Shown here: one piece after another, positions 975-60,589 of the stretch
Numbering within the stretch: the stretch's first letter is position 1
Layout of the letters: each line of letters opens with the position of its first letter
From: Thermoproteota archaeon
GTDB taxonomy: Archaea > Thermoproteota > Methanomethylicia > Methanomethylicales > Methanomethylicaceae
Assembly (NCBI GenBank): GCA_029887765.1
Contig: JARXPF010000001.1
Location: 194,378-258,377 of the forward strand
DNA: 64,000 bases
Direction of reading: 5' to 3'
The notes under the pieces: model-generated
What the model was told of the DNA's origin: nothing
The model's database searches: none
What the model saw: only the letters and a program-made list of their open reading frames with translations
Made by a program: the position numbers and the translations under genes

Positions 975-1414
975 TTTACAATTGCCCCCTTTGTAATAAT
1001 TTCTTTTAATCTTTCTGGTGTAGCTATTTCTAAAACAATTGAATAATCAATAGGTTGAGAGATGAATCTTTTTATATCTATTCTTGCATTTCTTGGACAG
1101 ACTTTTACACAAAGCCCACATCTAACACAAATTCCTTTTACTCTCTCTTTTCCAAGATTTTCATCCATAACTATTTTAGCAAAACCAAATGGACAATGTT
1201 TTACACACATACCACAAAGATTACATCGCTTCCTATCAACATAAAATCCACCAAATCTATTCCTTCTTATAGCATGTCTTGGACAGACTTTTGCACATTC
1301 TCCACATGTAGTACAACTAAAGGGTATACCATCTGGATGGATTATACAATCTGTTGGACAAATTTCCCAACATTTTCCACATTTATCACAATCAGTTGTT
1401 GTAAGGTACATCAC
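971..1414 (-). CDS. 4Fe-4S ferredoxin-domain protein
   Basis: 147 aa with four Cys clusters (CDKCGKCWEICP, CTTCGECAKVCP, CNLCGMCVKHCP, CVRCGLCVKVCP). Overlaps its neighbours by 4 nt. Confidence 0.7.
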   Translation of the reverse strand: MMYLTTTDCDKCGKCWEICPTDCIIHPDGIPFSCTTCGECAKVCPRHAIRRNRFGGFYVDRKRCNLCGMCVKHCPFGFAKIVMDENLGKERVKGICVRCGLCVKVCPRNARIDIKRFISQPIDYSIVLEIATPERLKEIITKGAIVK

Positions 1415-1689
1415 TTATCCCCTCTTAATAACTTTCCAATAATAATTCCAATTGTTGCAGTTATAAGAGGTATATTAAAGCCAAGTCCAGGCATGATATA
1501 TCCACCATATATTGAATAAGTAAATGTAAATGTGCCAAATAATAAAGCACCTACAATACTAAATACTATTACTAAAGTTACTATTCTTTTTGTTATTTTA
1601 TGAGCTAATTGAGTACCAAATAGTATTCCTAATATAAAAGCTATTATAGAGGGTGTTATTTCACCTAACACAATCACTCCTCCTGCCAT
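1411..1689 (-). CDS. small integral membrane subunit of Mrp/Mbh-like complex
   Basis: 92 aa, entirely hydrophobic, overlapping operon position. Confidence 0.4.
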   Translation of the reverse strand: MAGGVIVLGEITPSIIAFILGILFGTQLAHKITKRIVTLVIVFSIVGALLFGTFTFTYSIYGGYIMPGLGFNIPLITATIGIIIGKLLRGDK

Positions 1690-2820: not shown

Positions 2821-4307
2821 GGTAGAAAACCTCCTTCAACAGCTGGTATAATAAATCTTAAAGCAATATCAGGATATACACCAATAATGATTGTTAAAAT
2901 TATGAAGAACCAAATTCCAAAATTTATAGCTTTTGGAATTTTAGCTTCTAATACTTCAACTTCAGGAGGTTTTAAGAATATTCTATATATTGCTCTTAAT
3001 AGAGCAATTAATGTAGTTATTGATACCATTAATATAATAACTGCAATTTCAGGAAGTCCAGAATTAAGTGATGCTTGAATTAATATTATTTCACTTTGAA
3101 AACCATTAAATGGAGGCATTCCTGCTGCTGCAAATGCACCTAGTAAAACAGCAGCACATAACCAAGGAGACTTTCTTGCAATACCAAAGGAATTCTTTGT
3201 TGAAGTTGCTCCACCAAAGTAATATAATGCTTCACAACAGAATAGTAATACACTCATGTAAATTATGTCATTTACAGCTTGAAAAACTCCTCCAATTATA
3301 CCATCTTTAGTACCAAGTGCAATTCCTAATGTAACAAGTCCACTATGACTTATTATTAAATATGCAATAATCCATCTAAAATCAATTTGTATTAATGCTA
3401 AAACCACCCCTAATATCATAGTTATAACACTGAGAAATATCATAACTTCTTTAATAAAAGGAAGTGTGCCAAAGATTCTTAACATTATAATTCCTATAGC
3501 AACTAACATTAATTTTGATTGAGCTTGTAAAACAGCAGTAGCGTGAGGATAAGAGGCACCATAAACTTCTGATTTTAAAGGATGTATGGGAGCCAATCCT
3601 CCAGCATACATCCAAGCTAATATAAAAAATCCAAAGCTTATATACAAAATTTTCTCCATCCCGCTTATACCAACAGTATTCATTATTCTTATAATATCAG
3701 ATACATTTGCAAAACCTGTAATACCAAGTAGTAATGCTAAAGCAACAGCAAGTCCAGCTCCACTTATAGCTGAAAAAAATGCATATTTCAATGCAGCTTT
3801 ATGACTTATACTTGTTCCTGATGCTACAACAACACCTACTACAATAAGACTGCCAATCTCAACTGCAATCCATAAATGATATAAATCATTAGCCATTATT
3901 ATTATAGCAGCAGAAGCAAATAGTAGAAATATCGTTGCCATATATGGACCTTGGCGTTTTGTTAAACCTACAGTTGCTAATATGACACAGAATACTAGTA
4001 TTAATGAAGAAATTACAATCATAATTTGTTGTATTGGACCATAAACAAATTCTAATGAAAGTCTAAAAGCAGGTATTCCAGGATCAAATGTAAAAGTAAA
4101 AGTATTAGGATCAAAAGCAGGATGACCAGTGAACCAATGATATCCATAGGGCGAAATTATAGAAATTCCTAATGTTATTAAAGCTGATGCAATAGATATA
4201 TACTTAATAACTTCTTTATCATAAATTGCATTTACTATTACTGCTGTAATTAAAGGAATTATAACAATTAATGGAATTGACCATAAGTTCGATACTAATT
4301 CCATCAT
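2817..4307 (-). CDS. MrpD/NuoL/MbhH-like proton-translocating antiporter subunit
   Basis: 496 aa, about 14 predicted TM helices, typical complex-I antiporter-like fold. Confidence 0.75.
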   Translation of the reverse strand: MMELVSNLWSIPLIVIIPLITAVIVNAIYDKEVIKYISIASALITLGISIISPYGYHWFTGHPAFDPNTFTFTFDPGIPAFRLSLEFVYGPIQQIMIVISSLILVFCVILATVGLTKRQGPYMATIFLLFASAAIIIMANDLYHLWIAVEIGSLIVVGVVVASGTSISHKAALKYAFFSAISGAGLAVALALLLGITGFANVSDIIRIMNTVGISGMEKILYISFGFFILAWMYAGGLAPIHPLKSEVYGASYPHATAVLQAQSKLMLVAIGIIMLRIFGTLPFIKEVMIFLSVITMILGVVLALIQIDFRWIIAYLIISHSGLVTLGIALGTKDGIIGGVFQAVNDIIYMSVLLFCCEALYYFGGATSTKNSFGIARKSPWLCAAVLLGAFAAAGMPPFNGFQSEIILIQASLNSGLPEIAVIILMVSITTLIALLRAIYRIFLKPPEVEVLEAKIPKAINFGIWFFIILTIIIGVYPDIALRFIIPAVEGGFLP

Positions 4308-4678
4308 CTCCTCTCACCCTTTAATATAACTGAGGCTTTTAAAGTCCCATATCTACGATAAAGCATTATAACCAATGCCACAAGAATTGCTGTAGTACTT
4401 ACACCTATTACTATATTAGTTAGCACTATACCTATTGGAAATACTAAAGCAGCACGCATTGCAAATTCTGTAATAGACATACCCGGTAGTAAAATTGGAA
4501 CCACTCCACCTTCTATATAGCCTATTGCTACTAAGAGTAAATTAACACCATCAGATAGAAGTGTAAATGCGATTATTTTCTTTATCATGTTATCTAAAAA
4601 AACCATACCAGCTATTCCAATTACAATTAATAATGCAGCAGCAATAAAACCTAATAATTGAATAGTTACTTCAATCAT
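4304..4678 (-). CDS. MrpC/NuoK-like subunit
   Basis: 124 aa, LLSDGVNLLLVAIGY motif typical of MnhC/NuoK. Confidence 0.6.
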   Translation of the reverse strand: MIEVTIQLLGFIAAALLIVIGIAGMVFLDNMIKKIIAFTLLSDGVNLLLVAIGYIEGGVVPILLPGMSITEFAMRAALVFPIGIVLTNIVIGVSTTAILVALVIMLYRRYGTLKASVILKGERR

Positions 4679-4938
4679 TCTTCTTCAGTCCTCCTTGTTT
4701 TAAATATTCCAAGTATAATTATTCCAGGTAATAACACTGTTCCAACTATTGCTTGAGTCAAACCTAAGTCAGGTGCAAGTAAAGCTTGAAAGAAAAATGC
4801 TAATGCTATACTTTCTGCTCCAGATAAAAATGCAGCTCTAATTAAATCTTTTTGTAATAAAGCTGCAATTGCACCTACTGTTATAGCAATTACTATAACA
4901 TATCCCATTATAATAAAACTTGAGGATAGTTCAATCAT
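4675..4938 (-). CDS. small membrane subunit (MbhD-like)
   Basis: 87 aa hydrophobic, 4-nt overlaps on both sides. Confidence 0.4.
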   Translation of the reverse strand: MIELSSSFIIMGYVIVIAITVGAIAALLQKDLIRAAFLSGAESIALAFFFQALLAPDLGLTQAIVGTVLLPGIIILGIFKTRRTEEE

Positions 4939-5417
4939 TCTCTAAGCCTCCTTTGATAAGAATAATAATAAGCATTAGCTAATGCATTCCCACAGAAGGG
5001 AATAAGTACAAAGAAAAAGAATCCTACGGCCACAAGATCTAATCTAAATATTAATAAACCAGCAAAAATCATAACAAAAGAAGCTACAGTATCAATTACT
5101 CCAGTAATATGATTTCTGACATAGAATATATTTGGACCAAATTCATCACCAAATCTAAATAAACCAATACCTGCTAGAATCATTGGTAATGTCCCAGCAA
5201 ACATTATTCCACCTGCTAATATTTTAGCAATACTTTTTATGGCTAAATAAATATCAATACCTTTAAGATAAAGCATAAATGTTGCTATTACTGAAAGTAT
5301 TATAACCACTAATAACAATTTTGCTGGTTCTATAATAAATGAACCTTTTCTTATGTTTAAACCTACAAAAGTAATAATTATTAATGCATATATTAAAACA
5401 AAAATTTCCTCAATCAT
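4935..5417 (-). CDS. MrpG-like subunit
   Basis: 160 aa membrane protein with R.H..G..DT motif. Confidence 0.45.
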   Translation of the reverse strand: MIEEIFVLIYALIIITFVGLNIRKGSFIIEPAKLLLVVIILSVIATFMLYLKGIDIYLAIKSIAKILAGGIMFAGTLPMILAGIGLFRFGDEFGPNIFYVRNHITGVIDTVASFVMIFAGLLIFRLDLVAVGFFFFVLIPFCGNALANAYYYSYQRRLRE

Positions 5418-9053: not shown

Positions 9054-9431
9054 TCATAAAGTAAGACCTGATCGATCAACAAAGCCTTTTGTGATACGCT
9101 TTGGATTAATCTTTGAAACTATATAGTTAAAAGCAAGTTCAGGATCGCTTTTCTCTCCACATGTGAATATGTCTACAGTAGCATAGTTGAATTCCTTCCA
9201 AGTATGTATAGCAATATGACTTTCTAAAATTAGAGCTATTGCAGATACTCCGCCTTTCTCTCCACCAAATCTCCAACTCTTTATATCCCAAATATTCATT
9301 TTTGCAATTTTTGCAGCTTCTATTATGAGATTTCTTAAGAAGAATTCATCATCGAGAAGAGATGGTTCGCAGCCATAGAGATTTGCGTATATATGTTTCC
9401 CTATTACACAATTAATATACGCCTTAGCCAC
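9054..9431 (-). CDS. speH: pyruvoyl-dependent S-adenosylmethionine (or arginine) decarboxylase proenzyme
   Basis: 125 aa, ESHIAIHTW and TVDIFTCG motifs. Confidence 0.65.
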   Translation of the reverse strand: MAKAYINCVIGKHIYANLYGCEPSLLDDEFFLRNLIIEAAKIAKMNIWDIKSWRFGGEKGGVSAIALILESHIAIHTWKEFNYATVDIFTCGEKSDPELAFNYIVSKINPKRITKGFVDRSGLTL

Positions 9432-39450: not shown

Positions 39451-40922
39451 GTGATTTCCACCAAAGCACGTCTAAAAACTCCTTCACTATCTGTATAATA
39501 TTCTCTTAAAATACTTCCTATTTCCATATAACGTCGCATTCCTTTATTTACCATCCATTTCAATATATGCTTTCTTTTATTAATATTATTCATGATTTCC
39601 TTCATAGGTATTCCTTTTTCTTCAGATATTCTATTTAAAACTACACTTTCCTCTTCCATTATATGAGTATCTTCATTAGGATCCCATCTAGCAAGATAAT
39701 TTATAATAAGTTCATTTTTTTCTCTATTATACTCCTTGATTTCTGCTAAACATGTTGTTCTTCTTACAGAATAACTGCCTTTTTTCACTTTACTTTGAAT
39801 AATTATTACATCTAATAATTCTATCATACTTTTAGGAATATTCATTGGTGGAGATTCGAGTCTACTTATTACTTTTTCTACAGATTCAGCATGAATAGTA
39901 GCTTGAATTCCATGGCCTATGGCTAAAGCTTGAAATAAAGTATATGCTTCTGCACCTCTTATCTCTCCAACAATTATATAATCTGGTCTTTGTCTTAAAG
40001 CATTTTTTAATAAATCAAAAAGTGAAATATCAGCACTTTTTCTTCCAAATCCAGTTCTTGTAACCATGGGAATCCAATTTGTATGAGGAAGATTAAGTTC
40101 AGGTGTTTCTTCAATAGAGACTATTTTCATATCAGGTCTTATAAACATTGATGTACAATTCAATAATGTAGTTTTTCCAGATGCTGTTTCTCCAGCTATT
40201 AATATTGAACGCTTATTTTCTATTATGAACCAAAGATATGCTGCTAAATCAATAGAAATAGTACCAAATTGAATTAAATCAATTATAGTAAGGGGATCTG
40301 CTCTAAATCTTCTTATTGTAAAAGTAGTACCTCTTCTTGAAATTTCAGAACCATATGTAGCATTTACTCTACTTCCATCAGGTAAAGAAGCATCAAGTAT
40401 TGGTTGAGCAATAGAAATATGTTTACCACATAAATAAGCAAGTCTAGTAACAAATCTATTTAATTCTTCTTCACTTTCATATACTATATTTGTCTTTATA
40501 GATTCAAATTCTCTATGCCATATATATATTGGAATACCAACTCCATCACATGATATATCTTCAACATAATGATCTTTCATCAATGGATCTATTTTTTCAA
40601 ATCCAAGAAAATCTCTTTTTAAATAATAAAGTATTTTTTTAAATTGTCCTTCATCTATATTTATTTTATATTCTTTTATAATTTTTTTAATTCTATTCTC
40701 TAATATTTTAGAAGCTTCTTCTTTTGATAATTCCATTAAGTCTATATCTAATTCATCTAAAAAAATTTCCTTAATTTTTTTTAAAACTTTTTTATCTTCA
40801 TCAGTAAGAGTTGGCTCAATGGCAATGTATTTAATTTCCTTAGTTGAAGGATCCTCTACTATAGTTGCATATACATATGGTTCTTCTATTGGATAATGTG
40901 TTTTAAATTTTCCAAATTCCAT
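39447..40922 (-). CDS. type IV pilus/archaellum assembly ATPase (FlaI/VirB11 family)
   Basis: IAGETASGKTT Walker A, 491 aa. Confidence 0.8.
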   Translation of the reverse strand: MEFGKFKTHYPIEEPYVYATIVEDPSTKEIKYIAIEPTLTDEDKKVLKKIKEIFLDELDIDLMELSKEEASKILENRIKKIIKEYKINIDEGQFKKILYYLKRDFLGFEKIDPLMKDHYVEDISCDGVGIPIYIWHREFESIKTNIVYESEEELNRFVTRLAYLCGKHISIAQPILDASLPDGSRVNATYGSEISRRGTTFTIRRFRADPLTIIDLIQFGTISIDLAAYLWFIIENKRSILIAGETASGKTTLLNCTSMFIRPDMKIVSIEETPELNLPHTNWIPMVTRTGFGRKSADISLFDLLKNALRQRPDYIIVGEIRGAEAYTLFQALAIGHGIQATIHAESVEKVISRLESPPMNIPKSMIELLDVIIIQSKVKKGSYSVRRTTCLAEIKEYNREKNELIINYLARWDPNEDTHIMEEESVVLNRISEEKGIPMKEIMNNINKRKHILKWMVNKGMRRYMEIGSILREYYTDSEGVFRRALVEIT

Positions 40923-40958
40923 TATTTTTATTTTTGTTTTACTTAAAATTAAAGTTTT

Positions 40959-41756
40959 TTATATTGTAAAATCAGCATCAATTATATTAATTGAAATTCC
41001 AATAGGAGGAGAACCTCTATAAAGTAAAATAATTGTATGTTTTGTCCCTGGTGATGTAGTTTTTTCAACATAAAAAATAGTTTTTCCAGTTTTCCATCCA
41101 CTATCTATTCCATCAATAATTACTCTAGCACTATCTGTTCCTGTTGCTAAGAAAATAGTTATCTTAATACGAGAACTTAAAGCTGTTACATTTGCACTTG
41201 CATTAAATGCTATTCTTGAATAATCAAGATAGTAAAGATTATTCCATTCAAAAGATAAACTATACCAATAAGATTCTCCTAATTTTGTATTAAAATCATA
41301 ATCATACCATTGAACATACCATTTTCCTATTTTAGAAATTTCTGGAATTTCTGTAATTGGTTTTTCTGCAGTAAATATGTTACCATTACTAGTTACTACT
41401 TTACATTTTTCACTATAATTAAGATTTGTTTGAATTGTTATATCACTTTGTGAAGGAACTACCCATTCTCCTATTTGAAAACTATGACTAGACCATATCT
41501 GAGTTATAATTATAGGCTTAGTAGTTGGATTGAAAGCATAAATTAAAAGATTTCCTGATGAATTTTTAAATTCTAATATAAGCCTCTCTGAGATTTTATT
41601 TACTAAGAACTCTCCTTCTTCTCTTATTGCTTCAAAATAATTTACATAATTTTTAAAAATAAGTAACATTGTTAAAGTAGAAGTCATGAATAATATAATA
41701 AAAATACCAGTTGCTATTAAAGTACTAATACCTTTATTAGCTAACAAGAACTTCAT
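40959..41756 (-). CDS. pilin-like / FlaF-FlaG-like protein with N-terminal hydrophobic anchor
   Basis: KGISTLIATGIFIILF N-terminus, beta-rich remainder. Confidence 0.4.
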   Translation of the reverse strand: MKFLLANKGISTLIATGIFIILFMTSTLTMLLIFKNYVNYFEAIREEGEFLVNKISERLILEFKNSSGNLLIYAFNPTTKPIIITQIWSSHSFQIGEWVVPSQSDITIQTNLNYSEKCKVVTSNGNIFTAEKPITEIPEISKIGKWYVQWYDYDFNTKLGESYWYSLSFEWNNLYYLDYSRIAFNASANVTALSSRIKITIFLATGTDSARVIIDGIDSGWKTGKTIFYVEKTTSPGTKHTIILLYRGSPPIGISINIIDADFTI

Positions 41757-42159
41757 AGAAATTCCCCATTTTAGTTACTATTCTTAAATAAAATGTTGAA
41801 TTAGATAATAGAATTGGAACTGATCCATTAAACCAGACTACATTATTTGGAGCGAGCTTAATTTCCTCTACTTCAGCTTTTGTTCCATTTATAAACATTT
41901 GATGTAATATAACATCTACTTTTCCATAATTATATACAGCAACAGACACTATAGAATTATTGCTTAATACTTCTACAAAAACATCAACAATTACAAATTT
42001 CTCTTTCATACTAATAATATCAATCCTTGTTCTTTCTCCAAATATAGAAGTTACTCCAGTAAGAAATCCTACACTATATGAATATATTATAACACTTATT
42101 GATGATACTATAATTATCATCATTAAAATAGCGATAATTTCACTTATTCCTTTTGCCAT
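41737..42159 (-). CDS. archaeal type IV pilin with class III signal peptide
   Basis: MAKGISEIIAILMMIIIV, a prepilin peptidase-like cleavage motif. Confidence 0.55.
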   Translation of the reverse strand: MAKGISEIIAILMMIIIVSSISVIIYSYSVGFLTGVTSIFGERTRIDIISMKEKFVIVDVFVEVLSNNSIVSVAVYNYGKVDVILHQMFINGTKAEVEEIKLAPNNVVWFNGSVPILLSNSTFYLRIVTKMGNFYEVLVS

Positions 42160-42246
42160 AATTAAGATATTTATTAAGTAAATATATATATCATATTCTT
42201 CAATATTCGAAAAATTTTAATTCTTATGTAATTTTAAGATATATGA

Positions 42247-42324
42247 GCTCCGGTAGTATAGCCCGGTCAAGTATACTGGCCTCTCGAGCCAGTGACGTGG
42301 GTTCAAATCCCGCCCGGAGCACCA
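42247..42324 (+). tRNA. tRNA-Glu (anticodon CUC), CCA encoded
   Basis: Acceptor GCTCCGG/CCGGAGC, T-arm GTGGG-TTCAAAT-CCCGC, anticodon stem CTGGC/GCCAG with loop CTCTCGA, discriminator A then CCA. Confidence 0.8.
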
Positions 42325-42998
42325 AGAAAATTTTCCTATTTTTGAAATATGAGTTGCAATGATGAAGTTTGCATAATGAAGTTTATCCTTGGAGTTGTAA
42401 ATTGTTCTCAGTGCAGTAATTAAATTGGCTTAACATTATTGAAGAAGTGTCTAAAGGATTTATAATAAGCCGAAGTCCAAAACCATTAATTAAAATCAAT
42501 TAGCTCGGTCTTTTTAAGAATTTAATGACTACTAGATAGCATTTAGGGCTATTTGACTAAAAGTTGCTAAGATTTTTATCTAATACTATAGGATATAGTT
42601 AATGTGGTCCCCTTAGATAAGCTATATGCGGCTTGAGGTCTGTCTAGTCTTTCTACTCCTGACTTTTGTTGCATGACTTCACGAGGCTTATTTAAGTAGT
42701 ATATTTCGTGGTTTTAGTTTCAAAACATTCATGATGCTCGTAACTCTACTTGTCATAATCTTATCGAGTTTTAGGATTTACGATCTCCTGCTCAGAAGCT
42801 TTACGTTGGAGCTCAGTATTTATCTTACTCACAGTAGTCTCAATCATAATGTCAGTAGCTCTGGGCATAGCTGTCGCTGCTGGGCATAATTCTAGGTCTT
42901 CGTTGGGCTTGGCTTTTTTTAGGGGCTATATGCAGTCTAGGCTTAATGAGAAGCGTTGACGGAGGCTCGTCTTTAAGGTCTGGAAAGTCGATTATGGA

Positions 42999-43265
42999 AT
43001 GAGTTTACCTCTAACCTCTGTAATCTTCGCTCTGATAAACATAGTCAATTACTGGAGTCCAATTACATCAAGGTGGGAGATAGCTTGGTGGATGTCCATA
43101 CATATCTTAGCATACTTCGCCTTCAGATACTTAGCCGAGGCTATAAGGGAGACATTAGACATTTATACTTCAGCTTCACTACATGAAGGCGTAATGAGTG
43201 CTTATACGTTTCTATCCATTTATACAAGCAAATTGATCCTGAATATCAGTCTATTCATCAACTGA
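42999..43265 (+). pseudogene. membrane-protein gene remnant inside the GC-richer segment
   Basis: 88-aa hydrophobic ORF. Short hydrophobic ORF fragments in other frames lie upstream (about 42733-42990). Confidence 0.3.
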
Positions 43266-43571
43266 TTCATCTTCTTCTACCTTCTAACCATCTTCTTCCA
43301 TGAATATGAAAGCCATGACTATGAATCTAAAGAAAGTAGCCCTCCTTGTATATTAAGAGTCAAAAATGGAAGTTATAATTAATGTGTAAAAATATTTGAG
43401 AACATCCATTATAAGTGAATCTATGAATAAAGAGCTTCCATATTCTTTAATATAATTGTAATTATATAGAACAATTAATTATATTTCCATTAACATAATA
43501 CTCTCAAATAAGCTTAATTTATAAAGACTGTTACTCTAGAAAAACTTAAATGTTTATCAAGAAGTAATTTT

Positions 43572-44429
43572 TTGGGGCTTAAAGATTTGGCACTAGACGT
43601 AGATGAAATAAATAGTATTATAAGAATTCTTGTTCTATTAAGTGTTAAGAAGAATTGTGAATGTGATATTGAGGTATTAAAGCATAAGATTGAAAAATTC
43701 ATAGACTGTCCTCGTTGTGTAGATCGCAAAGAATTTGAGGAGACTCTAAATGAGCTTTTAGCTAAGGGTCTGATAGAGAGAAAGGGAGGGAAAATATCCC
43801 TAACAGAAAGGGGGCATTATATAAGCGAGGAATTGAAAAACGTACTTTTTAAAGACGAGCCCGTTCTGGAGGTTGTGGCTGGACTTACAGATGGTTCTAT
43901 AACAGCGCTCATAGTAACGCTATCTACATTTCTAGCAGGATTGAGCTCTTCACTTACGATTTTCACAGCTACCCTTACTTTGTCAGCAGTGGCAATTACC
44001 AATTTCTCAAGCTTCATACTTGGAGGTAAGACTGAAGATCTAGCAGATTTGATTTCACTAAAAAAACTAATGGAATATAGCACTGAAGGTATAGAGGATA
44101 GTGTAGAACGCAATAAATCTCTTATCTTATTAAGGCGATTATTTGATGTCTTGAAAAAAGAAATTAATAAATCAAATATATATTCTGCATTTATTTGTAG
44201 TTTAACAACTTTTCTTTCTGGTATTATTCCAATAGCCCTTTTCTTATTAATACCCCCACCTTTTGGAATAATCGCTTCTTTAATATTCGTTGGAATTACA
44301 ATAGGAGTGTTTCTAGTTCGTTATAGATCAAAGAAGATGAATATTCGATGGTGGATAACACTCATGGAAACTCTTTCTCTAGTTATAATATCTGTAATAG
44401 TTTCGCTCTTATTAGGAGGAATAACATAA
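43572..44429 (+). CDS. VIT1/CCC1-family Fe/Mn transporter with N-terminal Cys4/wHTH-like domain
   Basis: EVVAGLTDGSITALIVTLS VIT1 signature and TM helices; extra N-terminal CEC..CPRC plus LIERKGGKISLTERG. Codon usage is G/C-richer than the host. TTG start. Confidence 0.6.
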   Translation: MGLKDLALDVDEINSIIRILVLLSVKKNCECDIEVLKHKIEKFIDCPRCVDRKEFEETLNELLAKGLIERKGGKISLTERGHYISEELKNVLFKDEPVLEVVAGLTDGSITALIVTLSTFLAGLSSSLTIFTATLTLSAVAITNFSSFILGGKTEDLADLISLKKLMEYSTEGIEDSVERNKSLILLRRLFDVLKKEINKSNIYSAFICSLTTFLSGIIPIALFLLIPPPFGIIASLIFVGITIGVFLVRYRSKKMNIRWWITLMETLSLVIISVIVSLLLGGIT

Positions 44430-44676
44430 AATCCTTGAAAGTAAACATATGCTTAGCTATCATGGAAACTATGATTAAAAAATACTTAATGAATATTCTA
44501 TAAATTAATTTTATCAATTGATGTCAAAAACATTATCCACTTAGCATAAAATTCAGCTTAATAACAAAATCATGAATCTGTTTATATTGGTTAGATTAAT
44601 AAAAAATTAAATTTATCAATAAGAGAATAGCTAGGCTTAAATAAAATTTTGTTGTATTTTGCTATGCCGGAAGAGT

Positions 44677-44769
44677 GGCCCGGGTAAGATTATAAAATCC
44701 CCGAAGGGTAGTGGTTATCCCGGGGGCCTGTGGAGCCCCAGTTCGCGGGTTCGATCCCCGCCCCGGGCC
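44677..44769 (+). tRNA. tRNA-His (anticodon GUG) with encoded G-1 and an extra roughly 19-nt insert after position 9 (putative non-canonical intron)
   Basis: G-1 then GCCCGGG acceptor, T-arm GCGGG-TTCGATC-CCCGC, anticodon stem GGGGC/GCCCC with loop CTGTGGA, 3' CCCGGGC plus discriminator C. The insert is 44687-44705. An 8-bp leader/trailer stem gccggaag/cttccggc lies at 44666-73 and 44781-88. Confidence 0.65.
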
Positions 44770-44788
44770 CTCGCAACCACCTTCCGGC

Positions 44789-59820: not shown

Positions 59821-59896
59821 TGGGGCCGTCGGGATTTGAACCCGAGACCACAAGCGCCCCAGGCTTGCATCCTAGACCAAGCTAGACTACGGCCCC
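59821..59896 (-). tRNA. tRNA-Pro (anticodon GGG)
   Basis: Reverse complement: acceptor GGGGCCG/CGGCCCC, anticodon stem CAAGC/GCTTG with loop CTGGGGC, T-arm TCGGG-TTCAAAT-CCCGA. Confidence 0.8.
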
Positions 59897-60495: not shown

Positions 60496-60589
60496 GCGGC
60501 CGTAGTCTAGCATGGTCTAGGACGTCGGCCTTCCATGGATAGCCCGAAGAACGCCGAGGACCCGGGTTCAAATCCCGGCGGCCGCACCA
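60496..60589 (+). tRNA. tRNA-Gly (anticodon UCC) with canonical 16-nt intron after position 37; CCA encoded
   Basis: Acceptor GCGGCCG/CGGCCGC, anticodon stem TCGGC/GCCGA, loop CTTCCA, intron at 60536-60551, T-arm CCGGG-TTCAAAT-CCCGG. Confidence 0.8.

Follow-up and report, generated by a model that had tools for sequence, protein, structure and literature searches.

Probable horizontal-transfer remnant with a decayed CPBP-family protease gene beside tRNA-Glu in a Methanomethylicaceae archaeon

We analysed 64,000 nucleotides (nt) of the genome of a Thermoproteota archaeon of the family Methanomethylicaceae (assembly GCA_029887765.1, contig JARXPF010000001.1, positions 194,378 to 258,377; this whole stretch is called the window), in which DNA of atypical composition lies between the genes for tRNA-Glu and tRNA-His. 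About 1.05 kb of this DNA is very probably the remnant of a horizontal transfer anchored at tRNA-Glu and holding a decayed gene of the CPBP family of intramembrane proteases, and the VIT-like gene beside it a native neighbour. At the level of sequence comparison, transfer and later decay are demonstrated by homology, by the lesions of the gene, by a mosaic tRNA, by absence from relatives, by a substitution bias and by synteny.

Identity of the GC-rich island

The window has a guanine plus cytosine (GC) content of 27.5% (300-nt windows: standard deviation 4.1%, 99.5th percentile 41.7%). An earlier reading of the sequence alone (the sequence-only reading) had described about 2.3 kb after tRNA-Glu as GC-richer. 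The segment 42325-44665 has 32.6% GC overall, with the excess unevenly distributed: the description holds for 42600-43300 (40.1%, peaking at 45%, the strongest outlier of the 64 kb apart from tRNAs) and mildly for the gene of 285 amino acids (aa) with a VIT-like domain at 43572-44429 (34.0%), and fails for the AT-rich spacers at 43300-43571 (23.2%) and 44430-44665 (21.2%), as well as for 42325-42600, which at 27.9% is not GC-rich. Atypical codon usage, also claimed there, was found by calculation. Against a host baseline of 44 long open reading frames (ORFs), in which GC at third codon positions (GC3) was 9.9 ± 2.0% with a maximum of 16% and the log-likelihood was 0.52 ± 0.09 per codon, the VIT-like gene had a GC3 of 25% and a log-likelihood of -0.04 per codon, and the GC-rich island had about 35-45% GC in all three codon phases and no frame with a host-like codon signal.

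Hydrophobic ORF fragments in three frames of the island had been taken for a decayed membrane-protein gene, and reconstruction, tblastn and DNA alignment now agree with that view and identify the family as CPBP. In a comparison of strains, choosing the G/C allele at each polymorphic site opened the plus strand into two long frames, and the frameshift-corrected translation of the island on this strand, a 214-aa reconstruction, was the query for family searches. Its matches in a large protein collection were 40 PF02517-bearing proteins (best E = 8e-75 at 65% identity and 99% coverage), giving significant homology to the CPBP family over the domain. Intact members of 265-295 aa from Bathyarchaeia, Sulfolobales, Archaeoglobaceae and other archaea matched at 60-65% identity (E about 1e-75). 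Most of the 40 carry the annotation CPBP family intramembrane glutamic endopeptidase, with lengths of 228-322 aa, and the matches come from metagenome-assembled genomes (MAGs) of Bathyarchaeia, Sulfolobales, Acidilobaceae, Desulfurococcaceae, Zestosphaera, Nitrososphaerota, Archaeoglobaceae and Hadarchaeales. Three CPBP-family models of NCBIfam also matched the reconstruction (E 6e-7 to 2e-5), and the Pfam Rce1-like model matched it at E = 1.7e-3 with 19 bits, under the cut-off of 22.4. By tblastn, residues 12-77 of a homolog fell on 42632-42817 and residues 59-264 on 42759-43313, in a different frame. From these matches we identify the GC-rich island as a pseudogene (42604-43360, plus strand, 3' end approximate) derived from an intramembrane glutamic endopeptidase gene of the CPBP family (Rce1-like, PF02517). 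The description of 43266-43571 as ORF-free needs amending to that extent, since this stretch includes the 3' tail of a pseudogene that covers about 42604-43360. CAAX prenyl proteases belong to the CPBP/Rce1-like family (PF02517), as do the Abi-type bacteriocin-immunity proteins of bacteria, and the island resembles the members of this family in full-length homology, membrane topology and motif order (FRG, then the F-x-x-x-H region and the H-x-x-x region).

Two other identities were weighed. GC-rich islands in AT-rich thermophiles are often RNA genes, and the tRNAs of the window, at 60-65% GC, illustrate how such islands can mark them; that the island is a structured non-coding RNA gene is nevertheless extremely improbable. 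In searches of Rfam 15 with gathering and with relaxed thresholds the tRNAs alone matched; the island has just 40% GC, and protein homology covers its full length; polymorphism in it is raised ten-fold, the opposite of constraint; and the adjoining spacer at 42325-42603 gave no RNA structure signal, folding no better than shuffled sequence (z = +1.56). A structured RNA in the island was rejected on the Rfam result and this z value. We give just as little credence to a decayed minus-strand integrase, of the SSV type or a tyrosine recombinase, beside its tRNA target. Frame strings of the minus strand superficially resemble recombinase boxes, and in a related mobile element (L026) an integrase follows a DnaA-like gene; however, the translation matched nothing in Pfam or PHROGs, three related mobile-element contigs supplied proteins as tblastn queries, the Phage_integrase of L026 among them, none of which did better than E = 0.07, and the plus strand is fully accounted for by the CPBP gene. 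The candidate was rejected on these grounds.

Lesions and ongoing decay of the CPBP gene

The proteins of the window include an archaeal replication and pilus set (Cdc6, MCM, RFC, a FlaI-like ATPase and a TackOD1 protein), and exact-protein matches led to about two dozen MAG contigs labelled Candidatus Methanomethylicaceae or Verstraetearchaeota archaeon. Their identity to the window across the region is 99% or more, and they are therefore strains of one species; at least 10 independent assemblies join the island to both flanks without a break. Lesions were read from a four-way nucleotide alignment of the window with three intact genes, from contigs L028, L081 and L083.

Three conserved Trp codons (TGG) have become TGA in frame on the plus strand. 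Those at 42674-42676 and 42957-42959 are polymorphic, TGG being present in 5 of the 14 other-strain loci compared and in 6 of the 13 covering the site, respectively; the third, at 43263-43265, is fixed in all strains, and homology to the intact genes runs past it. Eight deletions lie after 42631 (5 nt), 42765 (6), 42797 (6), 42812 (17), 42869 (14), 42894 (17), 42910 (8) and 42946 (9), and the lengths of five are not multiples of three, so the reading frame is interrupted by three in-frame TGA codons and five frameshifting deletions. The 8-nt deletion (42910-42911) removed GTTGAGGA, which encodes Val-Glu-Glu in the intact genes; it shifts the frame and eliminates both catalytic glutamates of motif 1 (EExxxR), of which AFFRG is all that remains. 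In motif 2 (FxxxH) the FALIHI of intact homologs reads FALINI (His to Asn), and motif 3 keeps its His (WWMP(I/L)HILG in homologs, WWMSIHILA in the window). The copy thus differs from its family in being a pseudogene, with deleted catalytic glutamates, an Asn in place of the motif-2 His and a repeatedly broken frame. A short tandem duplication at 43298-43322, not found in the intact genes, completes the list; its 15-bp copy at 43298-43312 is missing in strains L001 and L002. Where TGG stands at 42957-42959, a 138-aa ORF results (42849-43265), which has been called a 'hypothetical protein' (P0008; e.g. L005:1360-1776 and L006:599-1015) and which we interpret as a fragment of the CPBP pseudogene, not a gene.

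The substitutions point in the same direction. The three intact genes are unanimous at 529 columns, and at these the window copy has 56 private changes, with 42 from GC to AT (17.8% of GC sites) versus 9 from AT to GC (3.1% of AT sites), a bias of about six-fold. Second codon positions were changed in 9.5% of cases, versus 4-7% in the intact copies. About 3% of sites vary among strains in 42400-43000, versus about 0.3% in the surrounding 20 kb (about ten-fold), and 23 of 26 polymorphisms swap G/C and A/T. These sequence patterns indicate that the CPBP gene is dead and drifting towards the AT-rich composition of its host, with some of the inactivating mutations still segregating. The amelioration of horizontally acquired DNA is a concept of Lawrence and Ochman, and the window fits it as a GC-richer import into an AT-rich genome with a strong excess of GC-to-AT changes, both in fixed differences and in current polymorphisms; it differs in that the sequence is unconstrained and hence decays at all codon positions, with inactivating alleles segregating.

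Foreign origin of the block

The window CPBP sequence is 79-82% identical, over ungapped DNA columns, to intact genes in MAGs of Bathyarchaeia (L028:4319-5152), Sulfolobales (L081:1854-2663) and Archaeoglobaceae (L083:7001-7837), which are 80-84% identical to one another at the DNA level and lie in different phyla and unrelated neighbourhoods. Native genes of the window and those of GC-rich Methanomethylicaceae relatives are only about 24-30% identical at third codon positions. The intact gene has 48% GC, versus 40-45% for its own loci in L028, L081 and L083. Furthermore, tRNA-Glu stands directly upstream at two of the three intact loci, L028 and L083. Rfam identified it as tRNA-Glu(UUC) in L028-L030, and in L083 a tRNA-Glu(CTC) lies 95 bp upstream of the CPBP gene. 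The Bathyarchaeia tRNA-Glu(UUC) genes (L028:3920-4012, L029:1286-1378 and L030:1092-1184) contain an 18-nt intron, score 54.9 bits in Rfam and are missed by default ARAGORN, so that tRNA surveys of these MAGs made with ARAGORN only will under-count.

The homology includes more than the gene. By blastn, window positions 42245-43309 aligned with 3918-5106 of the Bathyarchaeia contig L028 at 76% over 1190 columns, covering tRNA, spacer and gene, and the alignment with L028 showed no homology upstream of tRNA-Glu. The foreign non-coding spacer of about 280 bp (42325-42603, plus strand) is thus homologous to the Bathyarchaeia tRNA-Glu(UUC)-CPBP spacer, with 27.6% GC versus 35.9% in the donor-type locus. 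No integrase family was listed within 6-7 kb of the intact loci (L028-L030 and L081-L083), neither an attR-like repeat nor shared downstream DNA was found at them, and the DNA downstream of the intact genes has no homology to window 43361-43571. A distant-mode DNA search of phage and plasmid collections with 42325-43571 gave no match.

Contig accessions of the host strains (JAVYOU to JAWCDL) fall inside the range JAVYKE-JAWCTO, which comprises 2,949 archaeal MAGs from the Tengchong geothermal springs (PMC11770067), and the accessions of host and donor-type MAGs both belong to this hot-spring data set. Judging from these loci, the same CPBP gene, often directly downstream of tRNA-Glu, appears to circulate among unrelated archaea of one hot-spring system.

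Could the gene instead be ancestral, descended vertically, lost in relatives and pseudogenised in the window? It stands beside tRNA-Glu in three distant lineages, which makes an old synteny conceivable, but we consider this very improbable. The DNA, including the spacer, is 76-82% identical to that of other classes and phyla, whereas in-family orthologs are saturated at third positions; its 40% GC contrasts with a GC3 of 10% in the genes of the genome; the gene is absent downstream of tRNA-Glu in five of five relatives; and the sole Methanomethylicaceae match among 42 homologs is the 138-aa pseudogene fragment itself.

A mosaic tRNA-Glu and the edges of the import

The tRNA-Glu(CTC) gene at 42247-42324 (plus strand; ARAGORN, Rfam, a seven-way comparison and the alignment with L028) is a mosaic. 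Its anticodon arm is identical to that of all five Methanomethylicaceae relatives compared. The bases of donor type are C16 (42262), those of the T-stem at 42297-42298 and 42313, and the encoded CCA (42322), with one C-to-T change relative to the Bathyarchaeia tRNA; the T-stems of the relatives have different, mutually compensating pairs. Because the T-arm is of the foreign type and the anticodon arm native, the import begins in the T-arm or ahead of it (at or before 42297). The junction is thereby placed, on this alignment, inside the 3' part of the tRNA gene, as in a tRNA-targeted element.

The right boundary lies in AT-rich intergenic DNA (43361-43571, about 23% GC). In the comparison with L075, the window aligned from about 43539 with the promoter region upstream of the VIT-like gene (GAAAAACTT(T)AAA), so we put the right edge of the import between about 43360 and about 43539. 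The sequence-only reading had found no integrase or att (attachment-site) duplication, and searches of the window for frames, recombinases and tRNA-derived repeats gave the same answer. No tyrosine or SSV-type recombinase was present in any frame of 42325-44665, and no partial copy of tRNA-Glu or tRNA-His in the 64 kb; blastn-short and a repeat search for att returned just generic T-loop 14-mers of other tRNAs and AT-rich chance repeats; and a Smith-Waterman local alignment for a displaced native 3' half of tRNA-Glu scored no better than shuffled sequence.

Absence from relatives and the ancestral gene order

Genomes of relatives, all of other species, were found through one genome-collection scan with Cdc6. 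Two AT-rich sister species (L035 and L037) share the order FlaI, tRNA-Glu, tRNA-His, DUF362, THUMP and Cdc6, with 98 bp between tRNA-Glu and tRNA-His in L037 (25% GC) and 727 bp in L035 (27% GC), the latter holding a TnpB remnant; neither interval contains CPBP or VIT-like sequence. The remnant in L035, between the two tRNA genes (L035:7681-8073, minus strand), encodes a 130-aa TnpB fragment with a Cas12f1-like TNB domain. GC-richer Methanomethylicaceae (47-53% GC) have the order helicase, MFS, tRNA-Glu(CTC), VIT-like gene, M29 peptidase, POR, LigD_N, DUF362, CorA and THUMP. Here the gap between tRNA-Glu and the VIT-like gene is 113 bp in L080 and about 800 bp in L079, and no CPBP gene lies downstream of tRNA-Glu in L075, L079 or L080. 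In L075-L078 a gene for an AAA_14/DUF4143 ATPase is inserted in this gap (L075:6449-7786, minus strand), and in L031 a 275-aa TnpB-like ORF (3851-4678) adjoins tRNA-His.

The syntenic comparison that had been proposed for this segment therefore finds the CPBP block missing at the site in all five relatives (L035, L037, L075, L079 and L080), and the block of about 1.05 kb combines atypical composition with absence from close relatives. The conserved synteny in the GC-rich relatives implies that the VIT-like gene ancestrally stood right after tRNA-Glu, and the varied insertions in relatives lead us to regard the DNA just 3' of tRNA-Glu as a site of repeated insertion. As for the proposal of a tRNA-targeted integration remnant, what stands is that foreign DNA starts in the 3' part of tRNA-Glu and is missing at the site in the other species examined; the remnant, however, measures about 1.05 kb, not 2.3 kb, and excludes the VIT-like gene, and entry by an integrase is possible, with no direct evidence for it. 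The idea that tRNA genes on both sides bound the element failed, as tRNA-His has no signs of a junction.

The VIT-like gene as a native neighbour

The 285-aa gene at 43572-44429 (plus strand) is intact and encodes an N-terminal winged helix, matched by winged-helix models (HTH_45, E = 8e-4), and a C-terminal VIT1-like membrane domain. It had been described as the only intact gene and a VIT1-family transporter. Intact it is, but the match to Pfam VIT1 (PF01988) is weak and below threshold (E = 4e-4, 20.7 bits versus a cut-off of 28.1) and involves only the C-terminal 90 residues or so (residues 192-282, profile positions 123-213 of 214). Its closest homologs, at 78, 73 and 64% identity, are Methanomethylicaceae proteins; beyond them comes a very large family at about 50-55%, and many of those near 50% bear a precomputed PF01988 match.

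In the GC-rich relatives the gene always lies between the DEAD helicase and DUF362, and on this synteny we regard it as native. Synonymous codon identity to the relatives is 0.29-0.40 for this gene versus 0.21-0.37 for its neighbours; its synonymous sites are thus saturated like theirs, which gives no sign of recent import, and a recent import from the GC-rich relatives, which we had considered, is not supported. An older transfer or a gene conversion is possible.

The main competitor would make the whole 2.3 kb a single integrated-element remnant with CPBP and VIT-like cargo and tRNA borders, or, in a variant, a block obtained from a GC-richer relative by recombination between tRNAs. Several observations agree with it: the CPBP and VIT-like genes are both GC-richer than the host, the VIT-like gene is missing between the tRNAs in both AT-rich sisters, its protein is 73-78% identical to those of GC-rich relatives versus 45-63% for the neighbours, and the tRNA-His of the window shares one acceptor C and a trailer insertion with the GC-rich relatives. 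We nonetheless hold a single unit to be unlikely. The order tRNA-Glu then VIT-like gene is conserved in three GC-rich lineages without CPBP; the synonymous identity of the VIT-like gene, similar to that of its neighbours, argues against recent shared ancestry; its family evolves slowly across phyla (about 52% identity); with a GC3 of 25% it is far more ameliorated than the pseudogene at about 45%, which implies separate arrivals; the tRNA-His does not have the canonical intron of the GC-rich relatives; and a native gene, for AdoMet decarboxylase, also has a GC3 of 0.25. This last gene (9057-9431, minus strand; Pfam E = 2e-35) is clearly native and equals the VIT-like gene in GC3.

A strain-variable element and other features of the region

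The VIT-like gene has an inserted mobile element at its 5' end in two MAGs (GCA_038820875 and GCA_038822945), and 43559-43632 (plus strand) is a candidate attachment site of this separate, strain-variable element, which is not part of the pseudogene event. Contigs from the tRNA-Glu side (L012, 1-1310; L010, 1-200) follow the window to 43632 and continue into AT-rich foreign DNA (27% GC), and those from the tRNA-His side (L021 and L020) start at 43559 and 43558; these contig ends imply a 74-bp direct repeat (att). A 293-aa protein of the element matched PHROG families of 'DnaA-like replication initiation protein' (E = 2e-26). It had 6 homologs in a collection of 5.8 billion proteins, and the contig of one of them, L026, has a Phage_integrase gene 300 bp downstream; a search of IMG/VR viral contigs with the protein found no relative.

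The tRNA-His(GTG) gene occupies 44677-44769 (plus strand), with an encoded G-1 and a non-canonical intron near the D-arm, as delimited from ARAGORN (44699-44770), a partial Rfam match and alignment with relatives. ARAGORN mis-delimits the gene, the 5' acceptor strand and G-1 lying at 44677-44684. The intron, of about 19 nt, separates the acceptor strand from the D-arm, and its position is kept in all relatives (L035, L037, L031, L075 and L080). A canonical anticodon-loop intron is found in the GC-rich relatives only, not in the window or the AT-rich sisters, and because the window gene is without it, like those of the AT-rich sister species, we judge this tRNA-His to be native. Flanking the gene, GCCGGAAG at 44666-44673 pairs with CTTCCGGC at 44781-44788, and the helix covaries with GCTGGAGG and CCTCCAGC of the sisters, which suggests a conserved processing stem of leader and trailer. 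For annotation, standard tools mis-delimit this tRNA-His gene, and the 138-aa 'hypothetical protein' of some MAGs is an annotation error.

Between the FlaI-like ATPase gene and tRNA-Glu lie two minus-strand genes (40959-42159; 265 aa and 140 aa) with hydrophobic, pilin-like N-termini. A Pfam search with them was empty, and tblastn detected neither in the sister species, in which about 80 bp separate the end of FlaI from tRNA-Glu. Polymorphism is raised at 40800-41200 too, with 4-5 variable sites per 200 bp. Elsewhere in the window, a 154-aa ORF at 1055-1516 (plus strand) has a GC3 of 0.35 and an empty Pfam search, and may be a shadow ORF or another atypical piece. In the tRNA-Trp(CCA) gene at 60496-60589 the anticodon loop is interrupted by an intron of about 18 nt; the neighbouring tRNA-Pro(GGG), at 59821-59896, is on the opposite strand.

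Discussion

We propose the horizontal acquisition of a block of about 1.05 kb that starts within tRNA-Glu (at or before 42297), ends at about 43360 and would have comprised the 3' part of tRNA-Glu, the 280-bp spacer and the CPBP gene. The import would have landed between tRNA-Glu and its ancestral neighbour, the VIT-like gene; the CPBP copy would then have lost its catalytic Glu-Glu and motif-2 His, gained frameshifts and three TGG-to-TGA stops, and drifted towards AT. As an event this is of an ordinary kind, a horizontal transfer beside a tRNA gene followed by pseudogenisation and amelioration, and the window presents an unusually clear case of it.

Several points weigh against this proposal. 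The position of the crossover is ambiguous: as C16 is donor-like too, a donor tRNA-Glu(CTC) could have taken the place of the entire gene. For the mode of entry there is neither an integrase nor an att duplication to point to, and the right boundary is not recognisable in the sequence. No direct donor emerged from the sequence comparisons, in which the best match is just 76-82% identical. All the genomes are MAGs, and taxonomic labels and some contig assignments could be wrong. With respect to the neighbour, a purely native history would not explain the GC3 of 25% in the VIT-like gene, although the native AdoMet decarboxylase gene has an equal value, and the loss of the VIT-like gene in sisters is read from few genomes, namely those of two AT-rich sister species.

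Two routes of entry can be envisaged. Slightly favoured, and put forward tentatively, is a recombination for which the conserved tRNA-Glu sequence would have served as the anchor, the other side being joined illegitimately; we lean this way because the window segment and three intact loci are free of integrase and repeats, and because the lineages share no homology beyond the end of the gene. The alternative, a somewhat doubtful one, is that an integrase inserted a larger element, most of which would then have been deleted. Integration into the 3' part of tRNA genes is described for integrative elements of Sulfolobus and for bacterial islands. The window resembles such tRNA-associated islands in that the foreign DNA begins in the 3' part of the tRNA and leaves it intact as a mosaic, in its atypical composition and absence from sisters, and in a site that collects TnpB fragments and an AAA_14/DUF4143 ATPase in relatives. 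It differs in being a single-gene unit of about 1 kb without an integrase, a direct repeat of the tRNA 3' end or other element genes; the three intact loci likewise have no integrase or attR-like repeat within 6-7 kb. In homology-facilitated illegitimate recombination, known from natural transformation of Acinetobacter and Streptococcus, one end is a conserved anchor and the other is joined illegitimately. This process would explain the crossover in the tRNA, the missing integrase and att, the undefined right junction and the linkage of CPBP to tRNA-Glu; to our knowledge it is not established in these archaea, and its support in the window, unlike that in the known cases, is purely comparative.

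By analogy, one may go further and imagine the tRNA-Glu-linked CPBP gene as a minimal, integrase-less mobile cassette that uses the near-universal tRNA-Glu sequence as a recombination anchor across distant hot-spring archaea (Bathyarchaeia, Sulfolobales, Archaeoglobaceae and Methanomethylicaceae; 79-84% DNA identity), its spread being driven by a selectable protease function, for example immunity to a secreted toxin; the window copy would have lost that selection. Bacterial Abi/CPBP proteins provide the analogy for toxin immunity, and we hold the idea to be speculative and rather unlikely as a whole.

On the reading of transfer and decay, the window is a clean natural example of an import of about 48% GC into a host with a GC3 of 10%, with decay in progress and two of three nonsense mutations polymorphic. 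The interval between tRNA-Glu and tRNA-His would be a recurrent landing site in the Methanomethylicaceae, and one CPBP protease gene would be passing between widely different lineages of archaea within a single hot-spring system, time and again beside tRNA-Glu. The loci compared here hint at a tRNA-Glu-linked CPBP cassette that is spreading across archaeal phyla in one habitat.

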